Positions 33,167-53,637 of a stretch of 64,000 nt of DNA are shown here, piece after piece. A program made the position numbers and the translations under genes. The notes beneath the pieces were generated by a model. The model was not told the DNA's origin. It did not search any database and saw nothing but the letters and a program-made list of their open reading frames with translations. Source of the DNA: Candidatus Saccharimonadota bacterium (GTDB lineage: Bacteria; Patescibacteriota; Saccharimonadia; Saccharimonadales; SLHW01); the NCBI GenBank assembly GCA_050486305.1, contig JBJHDA010000001.1:435071-499070 (forward strand), read 5' to 3'. Numbering within the stretch: the stretch's first letter is position 1; each line of letters opens with the position of its first letter.

Positions 33167-33264
33167 AACAAATTTACTATATTAAATCACAAAATATACG
33201 ATTGTGCTACTGTCGATTGCAGCAATATCGGAGTATAATATATGTGTAAATAGGAGGGTCAGTC

Positions 33265-33762
33265 ATGAAGATTCTTATCGCCGTCGCAAGCAAACACGGT
33301 GCTACTGCCGGGATTGGCAAAATAATCGAACGGACGCTGGCTGAGCGTGGCCACGAACCGCACTTCCGTGAGCCGAGCGACGTAGACGACTTGTCGATGT
33401 ACGATGCCGTTATACTCGGCAGCGCGATATATGCCGGTAACTGGCGTCGCTCAGCCCGGAAATTCGCTGCTAAACATGGCCAAGAGCTACTCGCTCTCCC
33501 GCTTTGGGTGTTCTCTAGTGGTCCACTTGGGTTATCAAAAGATGATGATGAATACACTGGGCCGGTTATCGAAAATCTAGTCGCCCAGCTTGAACCGGTA
33601 GAGCACAAAGTATTTAGCGGAAAGCTAGACCCATCGCAGCTAAACCTTGGCGAAAAGGCCATCATCAAAATGGTAAAAGCTCCCCAGGGCGATTATCGAA
33701 GCTTTAACGAAATTGTGGATTGGGCAAAATCAATCAGCGATTACCTTTCGGATATGGAGTAG
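33265..33762 (+). CDS. Flavodoxin-like protein (HemG / flavodoxin_5-like)
   Basis: MKILIAVASKHGATAGIG N-terminal FMN-binding-like loop. 165 aa. Confidence 0.65.
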   Translation: MKILIAVASKHGATAGIGKIIERTLAERGHEPHFREPSDVDDLSMYDAVILGSAIYAGNWRRSARKFAAKHGQELLALPLWVFSSGPLGLSKDDDEYTGPVIENLVAQLEPVEHKVFSGKLDPSQLNLGEKAIIKMVKAPQGDYRSFNEIVDWAKSISDYLSDME

Positions 33763-34906: not shown

Positions 34907-35899
34907 GTGAGCAACGAAAAAATGGAACAAGAACCTGGTTATAAAGCAGAGGAAATGCCCGAAACGGAAGCGCCCTTATTTGAGCAGTCCGGCGAGACAG
35001 ACGTCCAGGAGTTCGGTGAGCAGCCTATCGATGCAACAACCGAAGAGCACAATGATAAACCCGAAGAGCAAGAAGCCGAAAGCAGCGCAATCGAGTACGA
35101 AGTTAGCTATCGCTGCGAATCTACAGAAACGTGGCAGTTTACTATCGATGCCACAAACGAAGGCGACGGCATATTTACCAGCACGGTAGCCCCGCATGGC
35201 GGACCTGACCCTGAATCTGATGAGTTCAACCCAGACGTCGTGCACCCCTTCAATCTCGAAGCCGGAGAGTCAGACTCCCTAACCGTAGGCGAACTGCCGC
35301 GAGATATCGCTTGGTACGAGTGGGCCACCGAAGACGAATTAGTAGAAGAGCTGCGCGATGAAACGGTAGATTATACCGGGTGCGAAACAGCAGAACCAAA
35401 GCCAGACAAAGAGCCAGAAGCAGAACTCGGGCCGTTGCCGATGTCGGTATCAATCGGTTGTGTCACAGAAGATACGTGGGAGTTTACGATAGATGCAGGC
35501 TGGGCTGGCGAAGGTACTTTTGAAAGCATTGTTGCCCCGCATGGCGGACCTGACCCTGAGTCTGATGAGTTCAACCCAGATGTCGTGCACCCGCTTAATC
35601 TAGAGCCTGGCGAGACCGGCTCAGTCACGGTAACTGATTTACCAGAAGTTGCACACTATGAGTGGACGACGGATGATGAAGTACTGCTATCGCTGCAAGG
35701 CAGCCAGGTAGACTTTTCTGCTTGTGCCCCTGAGCAAGTAGTAGAAGAAGAAAAAGAAGAAGAAACTATTGCAGAAACCAAAGAGCCAGAGGAGCTGCCT
35801 GAAACCGGCATGCACGCTGCTCCAGAGATCGCTGCGCTGGGGTTTGTTGCCCTCGCGGCCGGTAGCTACTTGGTTTACCGGGGCCGCAAACACGCTTAA
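34907..35899 (+). CDS. LPXTG-anchored acidic surface protein with two ~115-aa internal repeats
   Basis: C-terminal LPETG, hydrophobic helix and RGRKHA sorting signal. Internal duplication (TWQFTIDA...VAPHGGPDPESDEFNPDVVHP repeated, DNA ~35186-35262 vs ~35531-35607). No N-terminal signal peptide is visible, and an in-frame TGA lies 9 nt upstream of the GTG start. Confidence 0.75.
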   Translation: MSNEKMEQEPGYKAEEMPETEAPLFEQSGETDVQEFGEQPIDATTEEHNDKPEEQEAESSAIEYEVSYRCESTETWQFTIDATNEGDGIFTSTVAPHGGPDPESDEFNPDVVHPFNLEAGESDSLTVGELPRDIAWYEWATEDELVEELRDETVDYTGCETAEPKPDKEPEAELGPLPMSVSIGCVTEDTWEFTIDAGWAGEGTFESIVAPHGGPDPESDEFNPDVVHPLNLEPGETGSVTVTDLPEVAHYEWTTDDEVLLSLQGSQVDFSACAPEQVVEEEKEEETIAETKEPEELPETGMHAAPEIAALGFVALAAGSYLVYRGRKHA

Positions 35900-36093
35900 A
35901 GTGTTTCACCCTTTTTGTTGAGTCTGGGAGTAGCTCAAAAACAGCGGGAACTTTACTCACCTAGCATGTTTTTATGTTCACAAGCAAACTCTTCCTGCTG
36001 TAAAACAACACTCAGCCAAACATCAGGTAAATAGAGTTGTGTTGTCATTATGGTTTTGCTTACTTGGCAAAAGTAGTATTAGATAGAATATAT

Positions 36094-37569
36094 ATGAGTC
36101 AAAACCCAGAAATACCTCACTCCTTATACCCTGTGGCGTTCGGAAACGAAGAAGAGACCGGTATGCTGATCGACCACGGTGAAGGGTTTGATGAGCCGTA
36201 CGGTCTCGTGCAAGGCATCGAGTACTACGTACCAGAAAATCTCCGTGGCCATAAAAGCTTCCTTACGAACGGGGCAAAGATTTATGCTGGCGGTACAGGT
36301 GATGAAACCGAAGGGCTGACGAACCTTGAGCGCGCCACCGCGGAGTGCTCGACGCTAGATCAGCTCGTCGCTCGTATCCGCGCGAACGAGAAACTACTTA
36401 TTGACGTATCCAGCACCTACGCCAAAAAATACGCTGATACGCACGATACACCGGTGCATGTACGCATTCAGCGGCGTGTCGTCGACGGCCACGGTAGCCG
36501 CAAAGGCTGCCACGACAACTTCTCTGTCAATGGTAAAGACATTAACGATCCGAGCGAACGCACCAGCTTCCGTCTGCACCCGATGGTGCTAGGGCATATC
36601 GTTACGAGGTCGTTCGTCAGCGGTGCCGGGCATTTTACAGATAACGGTACGCATTACGGTCAAAAAATCGGCGGTCTAGTACAAACCGAAGGTCGTAGAT
36701 ACGGCGGTACGGTATATCGGATTACATCAGGCGGTGCCAACGAACGGCTAGAAGTCCGCTCGAACGATATCAACATCTCCGACTGGGCTATCCGGAGTCG
36801 TGTGGGCAGCACCGCCCTCGCGCTTGCGGTTGCAGGTACTGAGCTGGCAGATGGTTTTTCTGCGCACGCCAGTCACAACCAATACTTCGCCATGGCAAAT
36901 TATTTCAACGAGCTCAACCTACACCGTGACGGCAGCATCGAAGCGTCCGGTGCACAGCACGAAGCACTCGATTTCCAGATGCGACTCGCCGAGGTGGCGC
37001 TGTTCGAGCTCGAGCATATCGCTGGACCGTTGCCAGATGATCTGCGCACCGCCGCCGAAGAGCTTTACTTCTTTTGCCGCGATTACAAACAAGTCCTCGA
37101 TCAGGACGCCAGCGTTCGGTTGTTGGCCGATCGCGCTGATTGGGCTGCCAAGGCAGCGTATGTGCTAGACCGTATCGATGCCGACCAAAATAACGGTGTG
37201 CTCCGCAGCACTCACGATATCCAGGCCCAGGCAGATGATCTGCGCTACGATCATATCGCGCTGCGAGCAGTACCAGGCCTTAAGTCGCCTCGGGTGACGC
37301 ACGGCTATGGTTATAAACACCGTGATGCAGGTAATCTCAAGCACTCCGCATCGGAAAAAGATGTCGCTCGCGCTTACTGGCAGGCTCCGGAAACGACACG
37401 TGCCCATGAGCGCGCCAGGATATTAAAGGAAGACAAGGTCACCCATTGTGACTGGCACACCGTGAACCACATCCAGTCAGACGGCACGTACCGCTACACA
37501 ACCTTGCCGAATGCCGCCGGTACGCCAGTCGACATGCAAAAAGTCGTTGAATTCTCCAGCAAGATCTAG
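36094..37569 (+). CDS. Pup-ligase/deamidase-family protein (PafA/Dop-like), orphan
   Basis: FGNEEETGM (cf. GIETEYG), FLTNGAKIYAGG...ERATAEC (cf. NGARLY.D.GSHPEYATPEC), GCHDNFSV (cf. GCHENY), and C-terminal DWAAKAAYVL (cf. DWV.K). Start moved to the ATG at 36094 (MSQNPEI). Confidence 0.7.
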   Translation: MSQNPEIPHSLYPVAFGNEEETGMLIDHGEGFDEPYGLVQGIEYYVPENLRGHKSFLTNGAKIYAGGTGDETEGLTNLERATAECSTLDQLVARIRANEKLLIDVSSTYAKKYADTHDTPVHVRIQRRVVDGHGSRKGCHDNFSVNGKDINDPSERTSFRLHPMVLGHIVTRSFVSGAGHFTDNGTHYGQKIGGLVQTEGRRYGGTVYRITSGGANERLEVRSNDINISDWAIRSRVGSTALALAVAGTELADGFSAHASHNQYFAMANYFNELNLHRDGSIEASGAQHEALDFQMRLAEVALFELEHIAGPLPDDLRTAAEELYFFCRDYKQVLDQDASVRLLADRADWAAKAAYVLDRIDADQNNGVLRSTHDIQAQADDLRYDHIALRAVPGLKSPRVTHGYGYKHRDAGNLKHSASEKDVARAYWQAPETTRAHERARILKEDKVTHCDWHTVNHIQSDGTYRYTTLPNAAGTPVDMQKVVEFSSKI

Positions 37570-37699
37570 CCGAGCCAACCGTTCACTGCCACTTTCGTAA
37601 CGCTTTTTAATTGGTTGCATATGTTTTTAGTGAGCCTGGGAGGGCTCAGGCTGAAGGCTGCTGACTTGTTACCTCTATGTACTGGCTGCTATCGGAATT

Positions 37700-39491: not shown

Positions 39492-39551
39492 GAGCCTGGA
39501 AGGGCTCAGGGAGGGATGAAAAATGAATGCACCAGTCGACTGGTGCATTCA
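39492..39551 (+). repeat. Composite post-gene element: GAGCCTGGAAGGGCTCAGG mini-hairpin plus TGAATGCACCAGTCGACTGGTGCATTCA palindrome
   Basis: The mini-hairpin motif recurs at 35920, 37632, 54384 (inverted) and 56007 (inverted). The 28-bp palindrome recurs with one mismatch at 55942-55969. Confidence 0.75.
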
Positions 39552-39568
39552 TGATTTCATATCAAATA

Positions 39569-39898
39569 TCAATTATCAGATAGGCGGTACGCGACTGATT
39601 GTCCCGCATCGCCTATCTGCTGCGCCTTGCCCTCGGCTTCTAGTTCATTCATATACCGCACTACGGTATTTCGCGATACGCCTAGGGCATCACGAATGTC
39701 TTCGTTCCCCATTTCACCGTTTTCTTGCAGCAGCTCCAGTACCCGCGCCTTGCGCGCTTCTTTCTAGCTGGTCCGCTCCAGCGCCACCGCGCAAACCCCC
39801 ATCACATCACTGCTAACCTGCTTCACCCTCTCCTTCGTCGGCCGATGCACCAGCAAAAACAGAACGGCTACAGCCAGAGCAATAACAAGATAAATCAT
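39569..39898 (-). pseudogene. Small membrane-anchored winged-helix HTH regulator, interrupted by an in-frame TAG (copy 1, full length)
   Basis: Minus-strand translation: MIYLVIALAVAVLFLLVHRPTKERVKQVSSDVMGVCAVALERTS-TAG-KEARKARVLELLQENGEMGNEDIRDALGVSRNTVVRYMNELEAEGKAAQ... The TAG at 39764-39766 aligns with CAG (Gln) in the paralog at 41768-42010. Confidence 0.65.
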
Positions 39899-40006
39899 GG
39901 TTTGATTATACCAATCAATAAAAAGTATTGACTTATCGTTCATATTGTAGTATTGTAGTAGAAGGTTTCAAAAGTACCCCCTCCAAGTAACAACGAGGAG
40001 GATACT

Positions 40007-40672
40007 ATGTCTGAAAGACATACCACCAAAGCGCACATCAACCAGTCTCCGCAATCAAGCGGAGATTTTTTTGTGCCCAAAACCAAAGACCCAACCGAAC
40101 AACAAAAAAGCATCGTCATAACTGGCGGCCCATCAACTGGCAAAACCACCGCGCTCAAACACCTAAAAACAAAGCGCTCGGATCTCGCCTACATAGGCGA
40201 GGCAGCAACTATGGTACTATCAAGCGGTTTCCCAACGCCCGATGAAGAAAGGCCCTGGACGCAACGCTGGCAAAATTCGTTGCAAATCGCGATAGCCGGC
40301 ATGCAGCTCGGGCTCGAATCAGCCACACATGAATATGCATCGTCACCAGTCATACAAGACAGAGGTCTGCTCGACGGCGCCTCTTACCTTGAGCGAGGGG
40401 TCGATGAATTCGAAGAACTCATCGGCATAGACAGGCAGACCATGTTAAAGCGCTATCATGCAGTCATCTACCTCGGCTGGCTTACCACGCGCACATACAG
40501 CAATACCAACAACCCGCAACGGTTTGAAGATGAAAGCCGTGCAAAACACCTATCGGAGAAGGTCAGGCAATGCTGGGGAGGACACCCAAACCTTATCGAA
40601 ATACACGACCAAGACAATCGGGCGGCAAAGATCGAGAAACTACTCCCTGCTCTGCTAGGTGAACGACAATGA
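40007..40672 (+). CDS. AAA_28/NadR-like P-loop NTPase
   Basis: Walker A GGPSTGKTT, then VIQDRG (Walker B-like). 221 aa. Overlaps the next gene by 4 nt. Confidence 0.6.
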   Translation: MSERHTTKAHINQSPQSSGDFFVPKTKDPTEQQKSIVITGGPSTGKTTALKHLKTKRSDLAYIGEAATMVLSSGFPTPDEERPWTQRWQNSLQIAIAGMQLGLESATHEYASSPVIQDRGLLDGASYLERGVDEFEELIGIDRQTMLKRYHAVIYLGWLTTRTYSNTNNPQRFEDESRAKHLSEKVRQCWGGHPNLIEIHDQDNRAAKIEKLLPALLGERQ

Positions 40673-41799
40673 AGCCAAACAGCAAGCCAAAAAAGCTGCT
40701 GTGGGGTATCTGCGGCGTCGGTATGGGGCATGCCCACAGGCAGCTCCCTCTAATCCAGTACTTTTCAGTAAATCATCAAGTTGTAATTATCACATGCGGT
40801 GATTCGTATCACATGTACAAACAAGAGCTTAAAGGCAACGCGAAAGTCACCGTTGTGTACGCCCAACCGCCATATTTACCTGATGGGGCTTCAGGAATCG
40901 GTTTTAAAGAAGCGATTAACTTAGACCGTAATCAAAACATTGATTTTTTCAAAACTAGTGCCGAGGCATTTACCACACTGAACAACGTCATCAGTAGGCC
41001 AGACCTGGTGATTGGCGACTATAAGCCATATTGCGCCCAATATGCTTATGCTCACAATGCTCCCGTTATAACGTTCGACCAGCAGAGCAAGTATTTGTCA
41101 GGTGACTTCCCAGACTCAATTAGAGGATGCAGCTACTCCGGCGAAGTTATGCGACTACAAATGTTCTACCCAAAAGTAGAAGAACGGATTGCAGCCTCGT
41201 TCTTTAAGTTCAAATCGAAGCCTAACGCACCTGAAGTGACCATAGTGCCGCCGATAATCCGACAGAGCATTCAAGCAATCAAGCCTCAGAGAAAAAACGA
41301 CGGATCGTTGCTGGTATATTTATCTGAATACCCTGATTTGCTCAATGCCGTACAGTTACTAGAAGCACTTTCAAGACAGCACGATACAACAATAAAACTA
41401 TTCGCGAAAGGAGCCAAAAAATATAAGCACAAGTGTAGAAATCTAAAGCTCAGAGAACCAAACAATCAGGCGTTTGTTAATGCACTGAAAACATGTAGTG
41501 GCATAATCTGTACTGCCGGACATAGTTTATTGTCTGAAGCAATGTACCTCGGCATACCGGTCTATGCGCTCCCGCGTAAACAATACGAGGCACTCATGTG
41601 CGCTCGCGTCATTGCTGGCAACGGATTTGGTACAACCTCAACAATGCTCAATCAATCAAGCATAGCTAAGTTTATAAACAACCTGCATACATATCGCCAA
41701 TCAATTCATCAAAACTCAAACAATATATTACTGCGAACTGACGGCACCAGTGAAGTTATAGATATAATTAACCGCCACCTAGGACCTTGGAATAGTTAA
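40669..41799 (+). CDS. Glycosyltransferase (GT-B, MurG/GT28-C-terminal-like, TIGR00661-like)
   Basis: N-terminal GICGVGMGHAHR motif and C-terminal ICTAGHSLLSEAMYLGIPVYALP, typical of GT1/GT28 nucleotide-sugar binding. Confidence 0.6.
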   Translation: MKPNSKPKKLLWGICGVGMGHAHRQLPLIQYFSVNHQVVIITCGDSYHMYKQELKGNAKVTVVYAQPPYLPDGASGIGFKEAINLDRNQNIDFFKTSAEAFTTLNNVISRPDLVIGDYKPYCAQYAYAHNAPVITFDQQSKYLSGDFPDSIRGCSYSGEVMRLQMFYPKVEERIAASFFKFKSKPNAPEVTIVPPIIRQSIQAIKPQRKNDGSLLVYLSEYPDLLNAVQLLEALSRQHDTTIKLFAKGAKKYKHKCRNLKLREPNNQAFVNALKTCSGIICTAGHSLLSEAMYLGIPVYALPRKQYEALMCARVIAGNGFGTTSTMLNQSSIAKFINNLHTYRQSIHQNSNNILLRTDGTSEVIDIINRHLGPWNS

Positions 41800-42010
41800 T
41801 GTCTCTAGGAGGTGTAAGGGTTATTTCATCGTTTTCTTGCAGGAGCTCCAGCACCCGCGCCTTGCGCGCTTCTTTCTGACTGGTGCGCTCTAGCGCCACC
41901 GCACAAACCCCAACCACATCACTGCTAACCTGCTTCACCCTCTCCTTCGTCGGCCGATGCACCAGCAAAAACAGAACGACTATCGCTAGCGCAATTACGA
42001 TATAGATCAT
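41768..42010 (-). pseudogene. Truncated copy 2 of the TM-HTH gene (5-prime 188 bp conserved; the HTH part is replaced by unrelated sequence)
   Basis: 41823-42010 aligns with 39711-39898 at high identity. The ORF MIYIVIALAIVVLFLLVHRPTKERVKQVSSDVVGVCAVALERTSQKEARKARVLELLQEND then diverges and runs antisense into the 3-prime end of the glycosyltransferase gene. Confidence 0.6.
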
Positions 42011-42065
42011 ACCTCGAGTTTAACATTTACAGAAACTCAGCGATGCCAATACCTGATGATTGATA
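42011..42065 (-). repeat. Upstream/promoter segment U (copy A) of the TM-HTH gene
   Basis: About 55 bp, nearly identical to 43475-43529. On the minus strand it contains TTGGCA, then a TAAATG/TAAACT-like box, then GAGG before the ATG. Confidence 0.6.
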
Positions 42066-42140
42066 TCAGATGTTTGATGCTATGCTGTCGATATGAGTCT
42101 AGATGTAAATCAGATCATCTCATTCAGAGATACGTGTAAT

Positions 42141-43367
42141 CTAAGATGACATGTCGATTTCTTTCAAGTCTAGCTGAACCCTGTATTCCTTTAACTGAAT
42201 AATTTCACCTACAGGCTTGATGGCAGAGAGGAGCGTTTTATCGGCTTCACCTACGATGATGAGACCTCTTACTTTTTTACCGTTGGCTAACTGGTCTTTC
42301 ACCCAGCTTATGTAGTTAAGTATTTGGCCAACTACTTTATAACCTGATGAATCACGCTTGAGCTCAATTACAACGAAGTCACCGTTTTTATCTGTTGCAA
42401 GAATGTCAATTATGCCTACATCTGTTGTGTATTGTTGACCTGTATTTCCAACATCATCAACATACATTGATAAATCTTCACCAAAATTAATATTTGCCCA
42501 ATTATTAACAACGTACTCTTCCAGGTGTTCTTCTAGTGGCATAAAGCCGGTATAATCATCACTTACAGCGGATTTTAGTCTTGTGCTGTCGGGTTCAATC
42601 TGAATTTCATTTGAATCTTCTGGGTTTACTTCTTCAGCTTTTGAGTGTGAATACTGCCTAGCGGTTACAAAGATAACGTCTTGAGTAACCCATCTGAATT
42701 CTGAGTCTTTAAACTCTAGGCCATCAGTGAGCGATTCACGAATTTCTTTAAACTCAGCTCTTTGTTTAACTAATTTCCTAAGACCTTCAATATATTCGTT
42801 ATAAAGTTTGTATTGTTCACCTGGCGGAGTCTTATGAGGGATCTTGAATTCTGGGTTTATGAATCGTGAAAAGACCTTCCATTCTGCTGGCTTTAATGGA
42901 TTGTATAAGTCTGGGTACTTGAATCCTAACAGCAAAGATATAAACCGTAGGTTTATATAAGTATTAGCTGGAGGATGTCCATTTTTTTTGCTTCGTTTCT
43001 TTTCAAGTTCATCGAAAGCAGTCTTAGTTCTATTGATTCGTTCAGCAACATCTACATTGTTGTCAAACAGATGTTTCAGTATTTCGCGTGTTTCATCTGG
43101 GTAGTCTTCTGCATAGTGCATCAACATCCGTTTAGGAAAAAACATTGATCCCGCAACGAGGTTATTATTAAGTATTGAGTCGTCGATATTGCCAGCTAAA
43201 TCTAGAGATTCAATGTCAAAGTGTGTTTGAAAGTGATTTACTGATTCAAACTTATAGCCCTCATGCTGCTCAACGTGTTTCTGTATGCCGTGTTTACGAA
43301 CGTGATTAAGAAATATTCTTAGCCAATCGTTGTAGCGACTTGCCTCATCTTCCTTCACTGTATTCAT
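42141..43367 (-). CDS. PD-(D/E)xK nuclease-domain protein (NucS/DUF91-like C-terminus) with an unknown ~300-aa N-terminal region
   Basis: C-terminus TDVGIIDILATDKNGDFVVIELKRDSSGYKVVGQILNYISWV matches the D...(D/E)xK...Q..Y pattern of NucS-like nucleases. I do not recognise the N-terminal part. Confidence 0.6.
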   Translation of the reverse strand: MNTVKEDEASRYNDWLRIFLNHVRKHGIQKHVEQHEGYKFESVNHFQTHFDIESLDLAGNIDDSILNNNLVAGSMFFPKRMLMHYAEDYPDETREILKHLFDNNVDVAERINRTKTAFDELEKKRSKKNGHPPANTYINLRFISLLLGFKYPDLYNPLKPAEWKVFSRFINPEFKIPHKTPPGEQYKLYNEYIEGLRKLVKQRAEFKEIRESLTDGLEFKDSEFRWVTQDVIFVTARQYSHSKAEEVNPEDSNEIQIEPDSTRLKSAVSDDYTGFMPLEEHLEEYVVNNWANINFGEDLSMYVDDVGNTGQQYTTDVGIIDILATDKNGDFVVIELKRDSSGYKVVGQILNYISWVKDQLANGKKVRGLIIVGEADKTLLSAIKPVGEIIQLKEYRVQLDLKEIDMSS

Positions 43368-43393
43368 ACTAATGTCCTCTCAAATTAATAGTT

Positions 43394-43474
43394 TTATCGT
43401 ACTATACTATTCTCCGGCCGATGCAAAAATAAGAATGCCTCCACCAAAGCCAAAGCTACTAATAGATAAATCAT
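43394..43474 (-). pseudogene. Copy 3 remnant of the TM-HTH gene 5-prime end (26 codons), now a leader ORF upstream of the nuclease gene
   Basis: MIYLLVALALVEAFLFLHRPENSIVR-stop. It shares the MIY...LFLLVHRP start and the CGGCCGATGCA DNA segment with copies 1 and 2. Confidence 0.5.
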
Positions 43475-43529
43475 ACCTCGAGTGTAACAATAACAGAAAC
43501 TCAGCGATGTCAATACCTGATGATTGATA
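43475..43529 (-). repeat. Upstream/promoter segment U (copy B)
   Basis: acctcgagtgtaacaataacagaaactcagcgatgtcaatacctgatgattgata compared with 42011-42065. A few mismatches. Confidence 0.6.
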
Positions 43530-43624: not shown

Positions 43625-43717
43625 ATGAGTGATATTGATAACAGCTACGAACTACAAAAGATTCGTGAAGCACTGCAAAGTATTGCTAGCACACTGAGCT
43701 ATATCGCGCACAAATAG
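43625..43717 (+). CDS. Small ORF (30 aa) with a strong RBS
   Basis: AAAGGAGGA lies 8 nt upstream of the ATG, with a TATAAT-like box at ~43592. Peptide MSDIDNSYELQKIREALQSIASTLSYIAHK. Not in the ORF track (under 60 aa). Confidence 0.35.
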   Translation: MSDIDNSYELQKIREALQSIASTLSYIAHK

Positions 43718-43740: not shown

Positions 43741-46700
43741 TCATTTTGCCACTTCGCGGCTCCAGTCGTCGCCGAAGAGGTTGGCCTGTTCGAGTACTAG
43801 GTCGGTGGCCATTTTTTGTTGATCTGGTGGATAGCCGTATTGGTTGAGTAGCTTCTTTACTTCAATGCGTAGGCGGGCTTGGGCACTTTCACGAACTTGC
43901 CAGTCTACACTTACGTTCTTGCGGATTTTTTGTACCAGCATTTGAGCAAGCTCACGTAACTGAGCGTCTTGCATGACTTCTTTGGCGCTTTCGTTCATGA
44001 TAAGCGCATCGTAAAAGGCTACTTCGTCTTCGTTGAGTCCCTCTACCCTACCTGCTTCGCTTTCTGTACGGATCTTTTTGGCTAACTCTATAAGCTCTTC
44101 GATGACTTGGGCAGCTTCGATAGTTTGGTTACGGTACCGGGTCAGAGTTTCTTCAAGCATTTCCGAGAATTGCCGTTCACGCACTGCGTTTTTAGAGAAT
44201 TTGGCCTTAACTTCATCATTTAGTAGTTTTTGCAGAGCTTCGACGGCAAGGTTTTTGCGCTGCATGCTCCGCACTTCTTCTAAGAATTCATCAGATAATA
44301 TCGATAGGTTTGGCTTATCAAGTCCAGCGGCCGAGAATATATCTACGACGCCTACGGGAGTAATGGCTTTATCTACAATCTGCCGTATGGCTAGACGGTA
44401 ATCATCATCTGTTGGTCCGCCTCTGCGATCAACTTTATCTAGTCGAGCCTTTACTGCCTGGAAAAATGCGACTTGTTCGCGAATAGCTACTGCTTCTTCG
44501 TGTGGCATGGCCAGTGCAAAGGCCTTGCTTAGCTCCAGTACATGTTGCTTCAGCCGCTTCATGCCGTTTTCTTGCGCGAGTATGAATTCTTCTGCGTCGA
44601 GAATAATCTGCAGCTGTTCATTAGTGTCTGCCGTGAAGTAACGCATATAGTCGAAGCCATAAAAGAGATTTTGCACAATCTCAAACTTTTGTTTCATCAG
44701 CGCCACTGCCTCAGTGATATCGAGCGCTGGCTGGCCTTCGCCGCCGCTTTCGGTGTAATCGTTGAGCGCTTCTCGCAGTGCAGCCGCTACTCCCAGGTAG
44801 TCCACGACTAGACCTCCTTCTTTGCCAGGATATACGCGGTTCACTCGGGCGATGGCCTGCATGAGCGTGTGGCCTTTGAGCGGTTTGTCTAGATACATAG
44901 TGTGGAGGTTCGGCACGTCAAAGCCAGTTAGCCACATATCACATACAATCACCAGCTTTAGGTCGTTGCTCGGGTCTTTCATTCGCTCTGCCAATCGGCC
45001 TAGCTTGTCTTTGCTATGGATGTGCTTTTGCAGGCTGCCTTCATCATCTGCCGAGCCAGATATTATTACCTTGATAAAGCCTTCGTCTATGTCGTCTTTG
45101 TGCCACTCGGGTCGTAGCTGAATGATCTTTTCGTATAGATCAGCAGCAATACGGCGACTCATGGTTACGATCATTCCTTTGCCATCTATGGCTTCGAGTC
45201 TACCCTCGAAGTGCTTAATAATATCTTCTGCTATCAATTGCAATCGGTCACTATCGCCGACGATGGCTTCTTTTTGTGCAAACTCAGCTTTGAGTTTTTG
45301 CTGGCGGGTTGCTTCTTCGCCTTCTAGCAGATCGCCGACTTCTTTGTCGAGCCATTGCTTGGTTTCTTCGTCCAGGCCGAGGTCGATTAGTCGGCTTTCG
45401 TAATAAATAGGCACAGTTGCCTTGTCTTCTACGGCTTGGTGTACGTCATAAATGTCTACGTAGTTACCAAACACTGCTGGGGTAGAGCGGTCATCTTGTT
45501 CGATCGGTGTACCAGTAAAGCCGATGTAGCTGGCCTCTGGCAAGGCGTCACGCATATACTTGGCATAGCCATACACTAGCTGTGCGTCGCTTTGGCGGAT
45601 GCGAGCTTTTAGGCCGTACTGGCTGCGGTGTGCCTCGTCTGCGATCACGATGATGTTGGTACGTTCACTCAGGGTTGGTAGATGATCTTCATCCTCGCCT
45701 GGCGAGAACTTCTGGATAGTCGTAAAGATCACGCCGCCGGCATCGCGGTCTAGTAGTTCTCGTAGCTGCTTGCGAGTAGTTGCCTGTTTCGGCTTCTGGC
45801 GGAGTATGTCTTGGCAGCTAGCGAATGTGTTAAACAATTGACCGTCAAGGTCATTACGGTCGGTCACGATCACGAGCGTCGGATTCTTTAGCTCGCTAGA
45901 GAGGATGAGCTTGCCAGCATAGAACACCATACTAAGTGACTTGCCTGAGCCTTGGGTGTGCCAAACCACACCAGCACGGTGGTCGCTGTCTGGCTGAGCC
46001 GACTTTTTGGTGGAAGCAACGGCTTTGTTGACCGCCCAGTATTGGTGGTATGCGGCGACTTTTTTGATGTACTTTTCTTCTTTGAGTCCTTCGCGCTCAA
46101 AGACGATGAAGTGTCGGACTATATCAAGTAGCCGCGACTTATCAAATACGCCGCGGAGCATTACGTCTAGTTGCGGTACGTTGCTCTTTAGTTTTTCGCC
46201 CTCTATCGTCTTCCACGGCATAAATCGTTCCAGCTGGGCGGATATTGTGCCGAGCCGGGCTTCGTGCCCGTCGCTGATAACGCATAGTTCATTAAAGCGG
46301 AATAGTGAGCCAATCTGGTCTTTATATGTTTGTATTTGGTTGAACGCGCGCTTGACGTTTGCCTTTTCGCTGGCGGCATTCTTTAGCTCTATCACGACCA
46401 GTGGCAGACCGTTTACAAATAGCACGATGTCTGGGCGGCGATTGTGTTCACCCTCCACTACGGTAAATTGATTGACTGCCACAAAGTCGTTGTATTGCGC
46501 CTGATCAAAGTCAAATAGCTTAACTACTTGAGTGCGGATCGTTCCGTCGTTATCGCGATACTCTACATGCACTCCGTCTATTAGTAGCTTATGAAAGGCG
46601 TGATTATCTAGCACGAGGTCTGGGCTGTTACTGCGCAATGTTTTTTTGATAGCTTCTTGTCGGTCGGTTTCGGTTAGACTCGGGTTTATCCGCGCAACGG

Positions 46701-46845
46701 CATCATCTAGCCTGCCAACCAATGCCACCTCGCTGTATTCTCGCTCTCCAGAGCCATCTGGCCCGATGTCTGGCCCAAACAGCACTTCCCAGCCAAGCTC
46801 ACGTAATGTATCTAGTGCTGATTGTTCAATCTTGTCTTCTGTCAT
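43741..46845 (-). CDS. hsdR: Type I restriction enzyme, R subunit
   Basis: 1034 aa. N-terminal PD-(D/E)xK region (DIVLFVNGLPLVVIELK), helicase motifs HTQGSGKS and VIADEAHRSQ, and a typical C-terminal helical domain. Confidence 0.92.
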   Translation of the reverse strand: MTEDKIEQSALDTLRELGWEVLFGPDIGPDGSGEREYSEVALVGRLDDAVARINPSLTETDRQEAIKKTLRSNSPDLVLDNHAFHKLLIDGVHVEYRDNDGTIRTQVVKLFDFDQAQYNDFVAVNQFTVVEGEHNRRPDIVLFVNGLPLVVIELKNAASEKANVKRAFNQIQTYKDQIGSLFRFNELCVISDGHEARLGTISAQLERFMPWKTIEGEKLKSNVPQLDVMLRGVFDKSRLLDIVRHFIVFEREGLKEEKYIKKVAAYHQYWAVNKAVASTKKSAQPDSDHRAGVVWHTQGSGKSLSMVFYAGKLILSSELKNPTLVIVTDRNDLDGQLFNTFASCQDILRQKPKQATTRKQLRELLDRDAGGVIFTTIQKFSPGEDEDHLPTLSERTNIIVIADEAHRSQYGLKARIRQSDAQLVYGYAKYMRDALPEASYIGFTGTPIEQDDRSTPAVFGNYVDIYDVHQAVEDKATVPIYYESRLIDLGLDEETKQWLDKEVGDLLEGEEATRQQKLKAEFAQKEAIVGDSDRLQLIAEDIIKHFEGRLEAIDGKGMIVTMSRRIAADLYEKIIQLRPEWHKDDIDEGFIKVIISGSADDEGSLQKHIHSKDKLGRLAERMKDPSNDLKLVIVCDMWLTGFDVPNLHTMYLDKPLKGHTLMQAIARVNRVYPGKEGGLVVDYLGVAAALREALNDYTESGGEGQPALDITEAVALMKQKFEIVQNLFYGFDYMRYFTADTNEQLQIILDAEEFILAQENGMKRLKQHVLELSKAFALAMPHEEAVAIREQVAFFQAVKARLDKVDRRGGPTDDDYRLAIRQIVDKAITPVGVVDIFSAAGLDKPNLSILSDEFLEEVRSMQRKNLAVEALQKLLNDEVKAKFSKNAVRERQFSEMLEETLTRYRNQTIEAAQVIEELIELAKKIRTESEAGRVEGLNEDEVAFYDALIMNESAKEVMQDAQLRELAQMLVQKIRKNVSVDWQVRESAQARLRIEVKKLLNQYGYPPDQQKMATDLVLEQANLFGDDWSREVAK

Positions 46846-47885
46846 TCTATCTCTCTCAGTCCATAGTATACATCGAAGCGCTCCTTCTCCTTATCATCTA
46901 GTTGGCCTATGAAAAAACTAAACAACTCTAAGGCAAGAGATTTTACATCCTCGTCTAATCCTATACCGTAGACCTGATTGTTTGTCATCATTGCATCCTT
47001 GATCGCAGCTAATTCTTCTTGTCGGTAAAAATCTAGGCTATCGTGAATTCTGGTAACTACATTGTGAGTTGAACTAAAACTCCCTGAAGCCTGCAGGCTG
47101 CTTGGATCTTCAATGAGCAAAGAATCCGATGTTTTTATAATCTCTTTACTTGTAGCGTCTTGAAGCACAAGTGTTGAATATTCTTCATAGTCAAACTGGC
47201 TAACAACATCAGTGTTTCTGTTGACCCAATTATCCCTCAGTATAGCCTCAGGTTGCTCTAACTCATTTCTAATAGCACCGACTGTGTAGTCATCAAAAAA
47301 CACCCTGCTTAGTTCTTTCGCTATCTCATCCGGGCTTAAGCAAATTATTTCTTGCCTGTTTTTGTAATACTCTTTAAGTCTACCGTCCATGCAAGCTAAA
47401 TAGTATACATCGTATGTTTTTTGCTTCAAAAAATCATCGATTGTGCATGCTATAAGAGCATCTTTTATGCCTTTGTCGGAGTTATTTTTACCATTACTGT
47501 TTCGCATATTAAACGGTGGATTGCCAGGAATTACCCATTTGCGAATTTTCTTGTACGCCTCCACAGGATCTTTGATGTCAATCACCTGGTACGGTATATC
47601 CTCCATGATTTGTAGTTTACGAACATGTTCTTGCTCGTTTACAGTCTCCAGTGCAGTCGTGTCAAATCCGAGCATTGGTAGCAAAGAATTTCGCTTCAAT
47701 ATATTTAAATTTTCTTGAATACCCTCGGTCTTCTGCTGCACTAATTCATCGATAACAATTTGAGGCATGTATATCGTTGCCCGCTGGGATATTTTGATTA
47801 GTGTATCTCTTCGGCCGAAAAAAGCTTGCTGCGTACGATCTGCGTAACATGAGTTGGTATCAAAGATGACTGCAATTTTCGACAT
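46842..47885 (-). CDS. PIN-like (DUF4935-like) domain protein embedded between hsdS and hsdR
   Basis: N-terminal IAVIFDTNS, QIVIDELVQQ and DKGIKDALIACTI give the ordered acidic residues of PIN-like nucleases. The C-terminal ~170 aa is unknown. It overlaps hsdR by 4 nt. Confidence 0.5.
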   Translation of the reverse strand: MSKIAVIFDTNSCYADRTQQAFFGRRDTLIKISQRATIYMPQIVIDELVQQKTEGIQENLNILKRNSLLPMLGFDTTALETVNEQEHVRKLQIMEDIPYQVIDIKDPVEAYKKIRKWVIPGNPPFNMRNSNGKNNSDKGIKDALIACTIDDFLKQKTYDVYYLACMDGRLKEYYKNRQEIICLSPDEIAKELSRVFFDDYTVGAIRNELEQPEAILRDNWVNRNTDVVSQFDYEEYSTLVLQDATSKEIIKTSDSLLIEDPSSLQASGSFSSTHNVVTRIHDSLDFYRQEELAAIKDAMMTNNQVYGIGLDEDVKSLALELFSFFIGQLDDKEKERFDVYYGLREIE

Positions 47886-47891
47886 GTTTTT

Positions 47892-49055
47892 TCATACCTT
47901 TAATTCCCCGGATATTAAGCGTGGTAAAAGTGAATCACGTAAGCTTGAGAGAATAGCTATATTATTTATATTCAAAATAATCTGATCTACGATATCATCG
48001 AGTTGGCCAACTTCTTGTTTTTGCTCTTTTGGTATAAAAATCTTCATATGATCAATAGACTTTCCAGCGTGTTTAATTGTAGTACCCGTTGAATACACGT
48101 CTATCACCCTTTGAGTAGTCGGTGATTTCATATAAAAATATATGTACCCGCTAGAAATGCTTTCGTGCTTTGAGGTAATTTTTTGAATCCCACTAGAGTA
48201 AGCTCCTTCATATCCAACCCTGACCATACCGGGTGCACCATCAAATGAAACTAGTACATTGTGTTTATTTACAAAGCAGCCGTTTGCTATATCTTTTTTT
48301 ATGTAAACTTCGGATCCTTTATTTGTTAAATCACCTACTCGGTAAAAACTAATTGTGTCTTCGTGGGGCTCCGCTTCATATTTTTTTGAGCCAGGCTCAA
48401 TCCCTCGTTTAAAATTTAATACATCTTTTGCGGGCTTACCTTCAAGCTTCTCAGTCTCAGGATTGTCGATGAAGTAGTGCTTGAAGAGGGCTTGGCCCAT
48501 TTGCTCCAGCGTTTCATTCATTTGCCGATTCAATTCAATCTTTTCATTAATCTTGCCTAGAATTTCTACAATCTTTTGCTGCTCTTGTAGTTTGGGGAGA
48601 ATAATCTTAATAGTCTTTACGGCCTTGGTCGGGGTAGCTATCGATGGTACACCAACCTGTGCAGCATGCTGCATTAACTCATGCTGACCAATTGCGGATT
48701 TCATATAATAAAGTAGGTATCTCGGATTTACCTTGTTCTTATTTAGAGACATCCGTAACTGTGATTGTGAAGCTAAATAGTAGGGATACTTTCCATGCGG
48801 GACAATACTCACTTGCCCAAGAGTTCCACGATGGGTAACAACAATATCATCAGGATATGCAAGGCTACGTTTTAACGATCGCGCCTTCTCTTCGCTAACA
48901 AATGAGAAATCACCACCTACTTCATATCCGTAAAGATTCCCGCCTTTAATAACAGGAACACCCGCCTCAATGAAGTTATCTGCTTTGAGATTTGATCCAA
49001 AAGGACCCATCGCAAGATCGACAAGCAAATCTCCAAGCAAAACAGTCTGAGTCAT
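47892..49055 (-). CDS. hsdS: Type I restriction enzyme, S (specificity) subunit
   Basis: Two target-recognition domains separated by conserved helices (LPEQQKIVEILGKINEKIELNRQMNETLEQMGQALFKHYF and a C-terminal LRDSLLPRLISGEL). Confidence 0.88.
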   Translation of the reverse strand: MTQTVLLGDLLVDLAMGPFGSNLKADNFIEAGVPVIKGGNLYGYEVGGDFSFVSEEKARSLKRSLAYPDDIVVTHRGTLGQVSIVPHGKYPYYLASQSQLRMSLNKNKVNPRYLLYYMKSAIGQHELMQHAAQVGVPSIATPTKAVKTIKIILPKLQEQQKIVEILGKINEKIELNRQMNETLEQMGQALFKHYFIDNPETEKLEGKPAKDVLNFKRGIEPGSKKYEAEPHEDTISFYRVGDLTNKGSEVYIKKDIANGCFVNKHNVLVSFDGAPGMVRVGYEGAYSSGIQKITSKHESISSGYIYFYMKSPTTQRVIDVYSTGTTIKHAGKSIDHMKIFIPKEQKQEVGQLDDIVDQIILNINNIAILSSLRDSLLPRLISGELKV

Positions 49056-49444
49056 CTTGACACCCTCCCTGCTTTCTTGGCGAGCTTTGTAAATTTCTTC
49101 TGTTCGTCCATAAGTACTTCTGGATTTTTTACATAATGACTTGCTTGACGTTCGTGTTGCTCAAAGTCGAGTGCAGTTTCTATCCCACACTGACGGCAGA
49201 AGTGGCTTAGTGTACCTGCAGGCTTATAGTACAAAGAACGAACTTCGAATTCCTTACCCTCCAGTACAATAAGTGCAAAATGTGGGCACGCGTTTTTGAG
49301 TTTGATTAGGTTGTTCGAATCACGTCTTTCGAGAAATTTATTTATGTCAAAAGATATCCTGATTGCAATTATTGATACGACCGTCAAAATGAACAGCCCG
49401 ACGAACTGCCAAAAAGTCAGGCCCGTATTAAAGATCCCGTTCAA
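49052..49444 (-). CDS. Small membrane protein with a Cys/His cluster (embedded in the R-M operon)
   Basis: N-terminal TM helix (LTFWQFVGLFILTVVSIIAI), then ACPH...HFCRQC (Zn-ribbon-like). Overlaps hsdS by 4 nt. Confidence 0.5.
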   Translation of the reverse strand: MNGIFNTGLTFWQFVGLFILTVVSIIAIRISFDINKFLERRDSNNLIKLKNACPHFALIVLEGKEFEVRSLYYKPAGTLSHFCRQCGIETALDFEQHERQASHYVKNPEVLMDEQKKFTKLAKKAGRVSR

Positions 49445-49472
49445 AGCTTACTCCCGCGCAAAACAGTCTGCG

Positions 49473-49976
49473 TCATTTTTTCTTCTCCCATTTCTTCGTA
49501 GGAAATTGACTAAAATACGGTCCACGCAAATCAGATAATTTATCAAGTTCAGCATGGATTCTAATTTGCTGCTCGGCATGATTTTCTGCTTGTTCGCCGA
49601 CATCAAAAAATTCCCCACCGTACAAAATACCTTTACCTCCAATGTATGTACCGTGCGCAAACATGTTACGAATTTTTAACCAGTTCTTAAACAATGACTT
49701 ATTCAGCTTGTTTTTGTCACCGAGCAAGCGTTTATAGATTTTGGCCAAGATGTTTATTTTGGTATCTAGTGATATGCCTCGGCCGTTCATCAAATCGTAC
49801 ATAAATGCTAAATAAATAGGCTGGTAGTCCGCGTTTGGGCAGCGCGTATAAAACTCTGCCACATAAGCGTTTATCATGTGTTCTATGGATGTAGCTTGCG
49901 TTATAACCCTTCCGATTAATGCCTGATCCATAATAAGCTTGGAGGTTAAATCATCTGACAAGTCAGCCTTGGTCAT
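49473..49976 (-). CDS. HEPN-motif protein (Abi-like, putative RNase) embedded in the R-M operon
   Basis: Rx4H motif in KIRNMFAHGTY within an all-helical-looking ~167-aa protein. I prefer the ATG at 49976, with GAGG 6 nt upstream, over the ORF-track start at 50015. Confidence 0.5.
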   Translation of the reverse strand: MTKADLSDDLTSKLIMDQALIGRVITQATSIEHMINAYVAEFYTRCPNADYQPIYLAFMYDLMNGRGISLDTKINILAKIYKRLLGDKNKLNKSLFKNWLKIRNMFAHGTYIGGKGILYGGEFFDVGEQAENHAEQQIRIHAELDKLSDLRGPYFSQFPTKKWEKKK

Positions 49977-50511
49977 TTTTCGCCTCGATACTGTTACGGT
50001 GAGCATTTTTTGCACTTAACAGAAGACTGTACTCTTTCGGCTTCACTTGAACGTCGTAATCGTTGATAAGGGGCCTCATGAGGCGAATTGCTCCGCTTCT
50101 CAACCCTCGATTAGATAATCCAATATCCCGCCTCATCTCTCTGAATACATTGGTCATTAAAACCATGGTGTAAAATCCATTGCCGGGCTGATCGCTCCTA
50201 TATGTATTTTGCAGCATATCGGAATATGCGTTAATTACTCTCGGCGCAGAGTAAAGCACTGCGGTTTTGTGAAAGTCTTTCATTCTCTTAACGATATCTT
50301 TTTGTTGCTCTGGTGTAGCTCCTGTTTTTTGATCTTGTACGTCGGCTAGAAACTGCAAGATAAAGTTTACATACTCCTGGTACATCTCTCGTTTAATCTC
50401 AGCATTCCTAGAGCTGAACTGCGCCTTCTTGTCTAGCGAATACTTAATCAAGTAACCAACTATACCACTTGATATAATGCCGACAAGAGTGAGCCAATTT
50501 TCTGTTGTCAT
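49963..50511 (-). CDS. Single-pass membrane protein of unknown function (embedded in the R-M operon)
   Basis: N-terminal TM helix (WLTLVGIISSGIVGYLI). The remainder looks helical with no known motif. ATGA overlap with the upstream gene. Confidence 0.5.
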   Translation of the reverse strand: MTTENWLTLVGIISSGIVGYLIKYSLDKKAQFSSRNAEIKREMYQEYVNFILQFLADVQDQKTGATPEQQKDIVKRMKDFHKTAVLYSAPRVINAYSDMLQNTYRSDQPGNGFYTMVLMTNVFREMRRDIGLSNRGLRSGAIRLMRPLINDYDVQVKPKEYSLLLSAKNAHRNSIEAKNDQG

Positions 50512-51188
50512 TCGTTGCCTCTTTTCCTAAACCTGACACTAAGAAAGCCAAAACTCAATTCTGGAGTAATCTCAATTTTTCGTAACAGTCGAAATTTTCT
50601 TTTTGAGTCTTTCACGCTGCTACGAGTTACGTTCAGCAAAGTTTCTGAATTATAACCTTGGGTTGTTATTGCTCCTGATTCGACTGCTCCAAAATCATTG
50701 CCGGCATATTTTATCTTGTGCCTCTTTAGCTCGGATTTTTCGATACTTCCAAATACGAGCATATGGCCATAACCAAGATCATCAAACGCCGCCTTAATGC
50801 CAGCGAGGAATATACCGCCTATATCTTGGCGGTAGATATCCGGAATATTTTTTTCTGTAGAAGGTAGCGTTGAAACATAGCGCATGTGTTTGGCTATTGC
50901 GGCACACAGTTCAATAAACCTTTTGGGGCTTGGCTCGATTTCTAATCGCTCGAATACTAGAGCTGTCTTGCTGTGATTATCGAGCTCTTTAGTGTTTTTA
51001 GTCGGGCATTTTTCACCCATTAATCGCCAAACGTTTTGATACGATGCGCTGATAACATCTGCGAAACGTCCGTAATCGAGCAATGAATATTCATTAAAGA
51101 GCGAGTTCTTGATTCGCTCGAATGCATCAGGCGTCATCGGATTATTGACAGGTTGGCTCGGTAAGTCTGCAATTTTTTTATAAATCAT
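50508..51188 (-). CDS. Hypothetical protein (first gene after hsdM in the R-M operon)
   Basis: 226-aa ORF overlapping the hsdM stop by 11 nt. No recognisable motif. Confidence 0.5.
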
Positions 51189-52668: not shown

Positions 52669-52781
52669 CGTAATACTCCTGGTTATAAGTCGCTCAGTCA
52701 ATCTGACGTTGCAGTGTAAGAATTTTAACATCTTATAAGGTGTTTTTCCACGCTCAGAGGCTAGCCTTAGTTTGTAGTAGA

Positions 52782-53498
52782 ATGAACCTAATGGATAAGT
52801 TATCAAAATCTGCTCATCAATGGGTCAGAGAAAATCGTAAAAAACTACTACAAGAATTTTGCTCCGACACTATTTATAAATCTCAGGGACAGCCTTCAAC
52901 CATATTCATGGCTGGTACTCCTGGAGCGGGAAAAACAGAATTCTCAAAAAAATTGATCGAAGAGTTCCCGGTAAAGATGGTACGTATTGACGCTGATGAA
53001 ATCAGAGAGCTAATGCGCGACATCGGCTATAACGGTGCAAACGCAAAAGTATTTCAGACTGCTGCAACGAAAGGCGTTAACCAACTTTACGATCAAGCGT
53101 TAAAGAAAGGATATAGCGCAGTCGTTGATGGGACATTTTCATATGGGAGCTGGAGAGAGAACATCGATAGATCTTTAGGTAGAGGCAGACTAGTTGAGAT
53201 TTATTACTTATATCAAGAACCGGAAATTGCTTGGGATTTTGCAAAAAGGCGCGAAGCAAATGAAGGTCGAGCAGTCCCAGCAGAAACATTTATCGATGCA
53301 TATATTAAATCAATAAGAAATGTAAATGAAGCGAAGCGCATATTCGGGAACAAAGTCAAAGTAAATTACGCCGAGAATGACTATCGAAAAAATGTCAAAA
53401 AAATCGAGCTTGATATCGATAATGTTGAAAGATATCTACCTAAAATATATAATGAAGACGAGTTAAAAGGTTTGTTGCATGAAAGAAGCAGTTCGTAA
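52782..53498 (+). CDS. Zeta-toxin-family P-loop kinase
   Basis: Walker [15 protein letters not shown] followed by RIDADEIRE, typical of zeta toxin/AAA_33-like kinases. Start uncertain (52782 or 52791). Confidence 0.65.
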
Positions 53499-53637
53499 AC
53501 TATTTGGAAAGCGCAATCAGTATTATTCTTATACTGATTTTTCTTTGCATGCCTCAGATTCCGAAAAAAAGCGCTTGATGGAGAAAACTCTACAAGAAGC
53601 CAATAAGCTACAAAAAGAAACGGCCGGAATTAAATAA
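53479..53637 (+). CDS. Small ORF (52 aa) overlapping the 3-prime end of the zeta-toxin-like gene
   Basis: An ATG at 53479 overlaps the zeta gene end by 20 nt in another frame. Peptide [52 protein letters not shown]. Not in the ORF track. Confidence 0.3.
   Translation: MKEAVRKLFGKRNQYYSYTDFSLHASDSEKKRLMEKTLQEANKLQKETAGIK

Follow-up and report, generated by a model that had tools for sequence, protein, structure and literature searches.

The start of one small gene has served as an accretion site for defence genes in a saccharibacterial genome, and it now stands there three times, each copy separating one cargo unit from the next. The gene, which we call T, encodes a small protein with a transmembrane (TM) helix and a helix-turn-helix (HTH) domain; it lies in a 64-kb window of contig JBJHDA010000001.1 from a Candidatus Saccharimonadota bacterium, and all coordinates below are positions in that window, counted from its first letter. 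The locus belongs with defence-gene accretion sites, and its nested arrangement was seen in one genome only. As to mechanism, we infer, at roughly even confidence, that the site was built by recombination at the 5′ end of T, anchored on homology and without a dedicated recombinase.

The Candidate Phyla Radiation (CPR), or Patescibacteria, have tiny genomes in which few mobile elements can be recognised, and little is understood of how defence genes are gained and reshuffled in them. The locus offers a testable example, with gene-sized cassettes at the start of one conserved small gene, the scars of at least two events, and mosaic T alleles that point to recombination between lineages. Comparison loci and contigs are referred to by L-numbers.

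Three starts of one gene separate the cargo

Read along the minus strand from high to low coordinates, the order is hsdR, copy 3, a NucS-like nuclease gene, copy 2, a glycosyltransferase (GT) gene with an AAA_28 NTPase gene (both on the other strand), copy 1 and a palindrome. Copy 1 (39569-39898, minus strand) has the full extent of 109 codons, with TM helix, linker and winged HTH. The repeat arm that it has in common with copy 2 (39711-39913, minus strand) comprises T codons 1-63 and 15 nucleotides (nt) upstream, and includes the extended -10-like TGGTATAAT. Copy 2 (41768-42010, minus strand) is an 80-codon open reading frame (ORF) with an identical NCBI protein; codons 1-63 are T-like and the 17-codon tail reads antisense through the 3′ end of the GT gene, the HTH part having been replaced, as a preliminary description of this DNA had held. 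Its upstream segment (42011-42065, minus strand) is homologous also to the T upstream region of L002. Copy 3 (43394-43474, minus strand) is a 26-codon remnant (MIYLLVALALVEAFLFLHRPENSIVR and a stop) that ends 27 nt short of the NucS-like start codon, and its upstream segment (43475-43529, minus strand) is positioned to drive both the remnant ORF and the nuclease gene. Between copy 3 and the end of hsdR (43741) lies a 211-nt spacer; on its opposite strand, a small ORF (43625-43717) has a good ribosome-binding site.

The repeats lie where the preliminary description placed them and are beyond chance (blastn within the window, E = 7e-63 and 7e-20). Copies 1 and 2 are identical at 169 of 188 nt (39711-39898 versus 41823-42010), or at 177 of 203 when the match is extended to 39913/42025, and they contain an exact 64-nt block (39803-39866 and 41915-41978). 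The upstream segments of copies 2 and 3 are identical at 51 of 55 nt (93%; 42011-42065 versus 43475-43529), and the adjoining coding sequence at only 40 of 65 (41946-42010 versus 43410-43474). This coding part of copy 3 has 57-61% nt identity to copies 1 and 2, and is equally far from the T genes of L002 and L056. Just outside the repeats, identity falls to random (5/30, 13/40 and 8/30), and blastn found no fourth T-start copy in the window. The earlier picture, in which all copies shared a 5′ end and promoter, thus needs amending on both sides of the start codon: copies 1 and 2 do share coding sequence but have upstream sequence in common only from about -15, and copies 2 and 3 do share the upstream segment but have first codons that are only distantly related.

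The limits of the two events differ, with codon 63 and -15 in one and codon 22 and -57 in the other; the repeat pairs span T positions -15 to +188 and -57 to about +66, respectively. Where the three copies overlap, the only sequence common to all is ATGAT, and the precise alignment that had been proposed for defining a crossover core yields nothing longer.

The nested structure is physically present and is backed by independent contigs. Three Logan contigs from run SRR31311414 (L001, L057 and L058) are 100% identical to the window; L057 covers hsdR, copy 3, the NucS-like gene and the 5′ end of copy 2, and L058 covers the junction between the GT gene and copy 2. All three end within the exact 64-nt block, so phasing across this block is provided by the window assembly.

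The T product and its interrupted gene

An N-terminal TM helix is joined in T products to a winged HTH by a conserved linker in which G-x-C is invariant. Pfam matches are to HTH_24 (2e-8) and HTH_IclR (3e-7), and a PDB profile match is to AdcR at 0.003. An AlphaFold model has the TM helix at residues 3-17, a long helix at 19-60 and the winged HTH at 62-106, with predicted local confidence (pLDDT) above 90 over residues 50-100, and a Foldseek search with this model gave matches to MarR/ArsR-family structures. By sequence and predicted fold, T is of the winged-HTH (MarR/ArsR-like) DNA-binding type. At E <= 1e-10 the family counts about 794 cluster representatives, almost all of them 95-125 amino acids (aa) long. 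Members come from many CPR lineages, and some genomes have several paralogues; homologues of copy 1 are 40-82% identical to it. Some proteins (P0258, P0259, P0282 and others, of up to 818 aa) carry tandem arrays of 5-12 T-type winged HTHs.

Copy 1, which had been taken for an intact full-length gene, is interrupted by an in-frame TAG at codon 45 (39764-39766). The codon is CAG in copy 2, and the residue is Q or K in 16 of 16 aligned homologues; the independent contig L001 also has the TAG. Stop-codon reassignment was considered as an explanation and rejected, as TAG ends 14 of 52 genes in the window. Because the one full-extent copy carries this premature stop, no intact T gene is left at the locus, and the regulator is probably either inactive or made as two pieces, a membrane peptide of 44 aa and possibly an HTH protein of 47 aa starting at the ATG at 39712.

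All T genes compared have a TGnTAnnnT box 6-7 nt 5′ of the ATG and no Shine-Dalgarno sequence. By established promoter rules, the box resembles an extended -10 element, which would go with a leaderless transcript. A scan for consensus sigma-70 promoters passed over the segments upstream of copies 2 and 3, and promoter-like sites in the region are no commoner than in shuffled sequence; to call the T upstream segments promoters is thus a putative assignment, because it draws on their position and on the conserved box. With that qualification, the upstream segment of copy 3, which now stands in front of the NucS-like gene, probably drives it.

Cargo varies on the 5′ side of T in relatives

In L056, whose T is 74% identical, a homologous type I restriction-modification (R-M) operon (HsdM 75% and HsdR 62% aa identity) is followed by an intact T, with neither the NucS-like nor the AAA_28/GT cassette; this is the arrangement of the window minus both cassettes. 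The same locus also has ScoMcrA- and GmrSD-like genes upstream of T. In three other Saccharibacteria (L003, L004 and L005), T is divergent from an operon of flavodoxin and CCA-enzyme genes 75-83 nt away, and there is no cargo; L002, whose T is 82% identical, carries a C5 methylase, a reverse transcriptase and unknown genes on the upstream side. Unoccupied target sites are thus present in relatives (L056 and L003-L005), and the arrangement is not fixed. L002, L003, L005 and the window all keep a homologue of window 34907-35899 on the 3′ side.

The same polarity was found across the CPR. Of 55 CPR loci, 13 have R-M genes upstream of T and one has them downstream (p = 3.8e-4, with similar amounts of flank), and the upstream genes are always co-directional with T, often at gaps of 20-60 nt. 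Among 143 upstream neighbours of T, Pfam families included ResIII (7) and N6_N4_Mtase (5), among others, and none of these occurred among 150 downstream neighbours. Together with the differences in cargo between L056, L002 and L003-L005, these counts support the view that cargo builds up at a variable site on the 5′ side of T, and with it the accretion hotspot that the preliminary description had suggested.

Such linkage also bears on a different history, in which T would be the terminal gene of defence modules (R-M genes, T, palindrome), and three stacked modules, each bringing a T of its own, would have had their redundant T copies trimmed; the nested starts would then be what the modules left and no mark of targeting. 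The direct, co-directional placement of R-M genes upstream of T and the several T paralogues of some genomes argue for it, as does the divergence of the copy 3 coding part from the L056 T (57-63% nt identity), which is near that of the adjoining hsdR from the L056 hsdR (64% nt). Yet homologues of the NucS-like and AAA_28/GT genes elsewhere are not followed by T, the AAA_28/GT pair is opposite in orientation to T, T in L003-L005 has no defence neighbour, and the contrast between 93% upstream and about 60% coding identity in copies 2 and 3 would still need a break at the ATG. We keep module stacking as a live alternative, although an unlikely one.

An independent, parallel case of T, cargo and T occurs in L007 (Niyogibacteria; 8482-10321), where two T genes flank a RhuM/Fic gene. 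The 5′ 100 nt of this pair are about 55% identical, and from codon ~35 onward the 3′ 300 nt, including the terminator, are identical at 299 of 300. The arrangement is preceded by a type III-like res gene and followed by a NERD nuclease gene. Short T-start remnants occur in only two of 55 other loci (L007 and L040), the remaining matches being terminator palindromes found genome-wide; tandem T pairs occur in L007, L040 and L055.

Exact-protein look-ups for alternative alleles, with the flanking methyltransferase, the NucS-like protein and the GT, returned only short SRR31311414 contigs identical to the window, and a scan of viral contigs with T gave no match. An excess of T genes at contig ends on the 5′ side, considered as a sign of strain-variable DNA, was rejected (17 ends on the 5′ side and 14 on the 3′ side, mostly of short contigs).

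Gene-sized cassettes without mobility genes

The cargo identities given in the preliminary description hold. Cassette A (39914-41822, plus strand) consists of the AAA_28 upstream region, the AAA_28 NTPase gene (40007-40672) and a TIGR00661-type GT gene (40669-41799), with Pfam matches to AAA_28 and Glyco_trans_1_3. Its GC content is near the window average (~48%), and the gene pair, whose orientation is opposite to that of T, is kept in L064/L065 at 69%/59% aa identity. Homology to L064 extends over DNA (window 39923-41594, L064 5043-6722), and upstream of copy 1 the sequence from about -25 outward belongs to the AAA_28 unit, being homologous to the AAA_28 upstream region of L064. In L064/L065 no T gene lies near the pair, which adjoins LiaF and flavodoxin genes that are neighbours of T in L003.

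Cassette B (42066-43409, minus strand) is a gene for a NucS-like PD-(D/E)XK nuclease (42141-43367) with short unique flanks. The gene matches Pfam NucS_C and the PADLOC candidate defence family PDC-S02 (4e-32), and it belongs to a widespread single-gene family whose closest members adjoin DNA methylases and not T. Its GC content of 37-40%, against ~48% for the window, marks it as compositionally foreign. DNA homology to the 87%-identical gene of L059 covers only 43367-42162, ending with the ORF. Neither the NucS-like homologue in L059 nor the AAA_28/GT pair in L064/L065 has a T-like flank, a weak test at the distance of these homologues (59-87% aa identity).

Both cassettes are gene-sized (1.3-1.9 kb) and have no mobility gene. 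A Pfam scan of 50 ORFs of the window found no recombinase, transposase or resolvase; for 39.5-54.4 kb, where the absence of an integrase or transposase had been noted before, this holds among the ORFs scanned, hsdR, hsdS and hsdM having been assigned by homology to L056 and not scanned.

These properties bear on serial site-specific integration, in which mini-islands, each with a T-like attP and a replacement 5′ end, would have entered an attB in the T start by means of a recombinase encoded elsewhere in the genome and acting in trans, as with tandem tRNA-gene islands or Xer-dependent elements. A truncated start, cargo and a restored start are the topology expected of attL and attR; the T starts resemble different alleles, relatives have empty and differently filled sites, and the inspected DNA is 64 kb of a contig of ~630 kb, leaving room for a recombinase elsewhere. 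The scanned ORFs of the window, however, hold no such enzyme, the cassettes carry no mobility gene in their 1.3-1.9 kb, and their homologues elsewhere have no T-like flank. The left and right limits of the two events differ, with no core beyond ATGAT, and the repeats are 60-90% identical over 120-200 nt, where a short identical core would be expected. We therefore consider this history doubtful, and the analogy that had been drawn with integrase-driven tandem islands at tRNA genes is not supported. The missing recombinase, the differing event limits without a common core and the mosaic of alleles described below together favour homology-anchored recombination over a site-specific process.

The T starts look like diverged alleles

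Between copies 1 and 2, dS (synonymous divergence) is 0.33 and dN (non-synonymous divergence) 0.048, a ratio of 0.146, where orthologue comparisons give 0.07-0.16. The synonymous excess is significant (p = 5e-4), and neutral drift of one copy is disfavoured (p = 0.007-0.02); on these substitution patterns, copies 1 and 2 are taken to have diverged under purifying selection. In copy 3, the synonymous sites of the coding part are saturated and yet the 55 nt upstream are 93% identical to those of copy 2, a combination that no single duplication date can explain; the copy 2/3 mosaic therefore implies recombination with breaks at or near the ATG between diverged alleles. Judged by their sequences, the T starts look like diverged alleles that were brought together, and not like decaying local duplicates. 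The earlier suggestion that incoming DNA carried a replacement gene end fits this picture. The alternative offered alongside it, repeated unequal recombination, comes closer to the evidence, with the exchange probably between diverged alleles and not within one genome.

Under the recombination that we favour, the type I R-M operon would originally have lain directly upstream of T, as it does in L056. Two later events would each have set a gene-sized cassette into the start of T, one the NucS-like gene and the other the AAA_28 and GT genes, and each would have left a truncated T start consisting of the upstream region and 22 or 63 codons. DNA of related cells may have been taken up by transformation, which is a likely source because competence has been reported in cultivated Saccharibacteria (PMC10633639); for Patescibacteria, there are reports of competence genes and of genomic islands with type I R-M systems (PMC12455944). 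RecA-type homologous exchange would have anchored the incoming DNA on T or its conserved 3′ flank, and the far end would have been joined illegitimately, either by homology-facilitated illegitimate recombination (HFIR), with one homologous and one illegitimate end (PMC3240628), or by a Campbell-type single crossover of a circularised fragment. The full-extent T would have acquired its nonsense mutation afterwards. We further conjecture that recombination between the 64-nt blocks would excise a 2,112-bp circle with cassette A and one hybrid T start, and that this circle could then insert again wherever a genome has a similar T. In this account the sequence of the events, their donors and the pathway of recombination are inferred; the repeats with their edges, the variation of cargo among relatives, the upstream position of R-M genes, the divergence under purifying selection and the lack of a recombinase among the scanned ORFs of the window are observed.

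A purely internal history would dispense with donors: tandem duplication of T by unequal crossing-over or replication slippage, insertions between the copies, deletional decay of the kind usual in streamlined genomes, and gene conversion. Tandem T copies do occur in other CPR loci (L007, L040 and L055), and the 64-nt exact block here and the 299/300 stretch in L007 are what conversion would leave. The GC content of cassette A is native, and its two genes are resident as a pair in other Saccharibacteria. The region is also rearranged, since the flavodoxin/CCA block, divergent from T in L003-L005, lies beyond 34907-35899 in the window, on the other side of that gene than in these relatives. Set against this, the divergence of copies 1 and 2 is mostly synonymous (0.146), which is unexpected for a drifting truncated duplicate, the saturated coding part and 93% identical upstream segment of copy 3 need more than one duplication date, and the NucS-like gene is compositionally foreign. 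Internal duplication with conversion thus stays live as an alternative, and we give it a minor but real share of our confidence.

Several points weigh against homology-anchored accretion. No close relative (>85% nt identity) with an alternative allele was found, a metagenome scan with T having given one distant locus; nor was a donor or pre-insertion sequence from a close relative found. For copy 2, it is the window assembly that joins one half to the other across the 64-nt block. Classical HFIR replaces recipient DNA, and the 203-nt direct duplication round cassette A fits a Campbell-type or unequal exchange at least equally well. If copy 2, truncated to 80 aa as it is, were functional and under selection, this too could account for the low dN/dS, and the histories of the alleles are blurred, because the 64-nt block and the 300-nt repeat of L007 show conversion or recent exchange between resident copies. 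Finally, cassette A may stem from an internal rearrangement, because it has native-like GC and its gene pair lies near T-neighbour genes in another Saccharibacterium.

Likeness to known systems

Tandem islands at tRNA or tmRNA genes or at the ends of protein genes, such as SCC at the 3′ end of rlmH, are integrase-mediated. Like them, the locus has cargo units separated by fragments of the target gene, with the end nearest the intact part newly supplied, and has empty or differently filled counterparts in relatives. Unlike them, it repeats the 5′ end and upstream region and not the 3′ end, its repeats are long (120-200 nt) and diverged, with differing junctions and no short common core, its cassettes are single genes or gene pairs, and no integrase was found in the window. 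The likeness to HFIR or Campbell-type insertion is that one conserved anchor (T and its 3′ flank) faces a variable side, with gene-sized foreign DNA beside the anchor, no mobility gene, and mosaic alleles broken inside the anchor; in classical HFIR, by contrast, the anchor is not directly duplicated as it is here. We know of no demonstration of either kind of insertion in any CPR organism.

Defence islands resemble the locus in content, which comprises R-M genes, a candidate defence nuclease, PIN, HEPN and Abi-like genes and a zeta toxin, and in varying among relatives. They differ from it in that the hotspot here is marked by remnants of the flanking gene itself, and that the flanking T family is tied to R-M operons across the whole superphylum. 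As in integron arrays, small cassettes with no evident promoter of their own are stacked at a fixed promoter, the NucS-like gene directly behind a T upstream segment; unlike integrons, the locus showed no IntI and no attC-like inverted-repeat element after the NucS-like or GT gene, its second cassette is reversed, and the upstream segment was duplicated at each event and not shared.

The pdif modules of Acinetobacter are XerCD-dependent. They, too, are small and without a recombinase, and the region has palindromes of 28-30 nt with 11-nt arms and a 6-nt centre; these, however, lie after T or at the far end of the island and do not flank cassettes, and they are perfectly symmetric where pdif sites are XerC/XerD hybrids. 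T also recalls the controller (C) proteins of R-M systems in being a small HTH protein encoded in or beside R-M operons. C proteins have an Xre-type HTH, are encoded upstream of the R gene and have a C-box operator upstream, whereas T has a MarR/ArsR-type winged HTH with an N-terminal TM helix, lies after hsdR or res, and has its palindrome downstream.

The R-M operon and the island beyond it

The type I R-M operon (43741-52806, minus strand) was identified by homology to the annotated operon of L056, and also to L014. It includes hsdR (43741-46845), hsdS (47892-49055) and hsdM (about 51178-52670), with accessory genes of the PIN_12 (46842-47885), HEPN-like (49473-50015) and, as a weak match, AbiN-like (49963-50511) kinds and two genes of unknown function. 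All five extra genes between hsdR and hsdM (46842-51188) are low in GC (38-41%), and the L056 operon has different inserts at corresponding places (a 160-aa gene and DUF3644). The far part of the island holds a zeta-toxin gene (52740-53498, plus strand) and RadC (53630-54283, minus strand). Near T, RadC is found repeatedly next to DNA methylases: L006 (4675-6429) has it fused with a C5 methylase, in L055 (2280-5946) it precedes one, and in the window it sits at the island edge.

The defence cargo thus comprises the R-M operon, the PDC-S02 candidate nuclease, the PIN, HEPN and Abi-like genes and the zeta toxin, with low-GC patches. The locus is a defence island and hotspot, in that defence genes are enriched and the content at the same flank varies among related genomes.

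Palindromes and a structured element

A 30-nt perfect, terminator-like palindrome (39523-39552) lies 16 nt past the T stop, and the same one follows T in L002 and L003. A second copy with two mismatches occurs at 55941-55970, with the adjacent GAGCC hairpin on its opposite side, and an orphan palindrome of the T type at 54322-54349, which equals the terminator after T in L056, has no adjoining T gene. In the region palindromes of this kind occur only at these three places (39523, 54322 and 55941), and none at a cassette edge. In 21 of 56 loci, which represent many CPR classes, a palindrome of this family (arm AAYACGCCA(G/C), with 10-15-bp stems) is found between 4 nt before the T stop and 49 nt past it. 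Of the 38 such palindromes in 777 kb, 21 stand directly after T (p = 3e-36), an association that is partly circular, the motif having been defined from T-adjacent cases. The T-linked palindrome is a candidate operator, tether site or recombination site.

T follows R-M operons in about a quarter of loci, and the conserved palindrome follows T in over a third; we did not meet either linkage in the literature consulted, which was not searched for them. If both patterns hold, they would establish a new regulator or site associated with defence, in a large and little-studied section of bacterial diversity. A bolder idea is that T, its compact start and the downstream palindrome (arm AAYACGCCA) form a CPR-wide landing pad for defence genes, which we think improbable as matters stand. 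The membrane-anchored T protein would mark, and perhaps tether or regulate, a site where homologous exchange captures incoming defence genes, those of R-M systems among them, and each capture would leave a portable promoter-plus-start before the new gene, integron-like but with no integrase.

The palindrome and a GAGCC...GGCTC hairpin form composites that are inverted at the two ends of the 16.4-kb region (39492-39552 and 55941-56023), and related sites lie at 54322-54406 and 37632-37647. Inverted in this way, the composites could allow inversion of the whole island. Another palindrome, TACTTGCGGCCGCAAGTA, also occurs twice in the window (11096-11113 and 16084-16109), and the reuse of palindromic terminators seems characteristic of this genome. 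In L020, one palindrome occurs six times in 5 kb.

The far island end, both here and in L002, is marked by a structured non-coding element of ~230 nt, element X (54400-54640, plus strand). It also occurs at L003 1623-1921 and at L002 10939-11119 and 3092-3330, and lies just after T in L002 and L003; it is 74% identical between genomes, and the two L002 copies are inverted and 95% identical. The consensus fold on the plus strand has 67 pairs, 11 of them with compensatory changes and two broken, and a search of 36-58 kb, including element X, gave no Rfam match at E <= 0.1. Element X is probably an undescribed structured RNA.

Two candidates in the surrounding sequence were rejected. The gene at 54690-55871, considered as a paralogue of 34907-35899 and so as a sign of a duplicated ancestral locus, is unrelated to it; and a minus-strand ORF (33207-33668) is not a gene, as homology supports the overlapping plus-strand Flavodoxin_5 ORF (33265-33762). 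Between T and its usual 3′ neighbour, the window has a gene of the Pup-ligase family (36037-37569), together with TrmB-like and methyltransferase genes, and a baeRF (release-factor-like) gene (61103-62266) lies near the window end.

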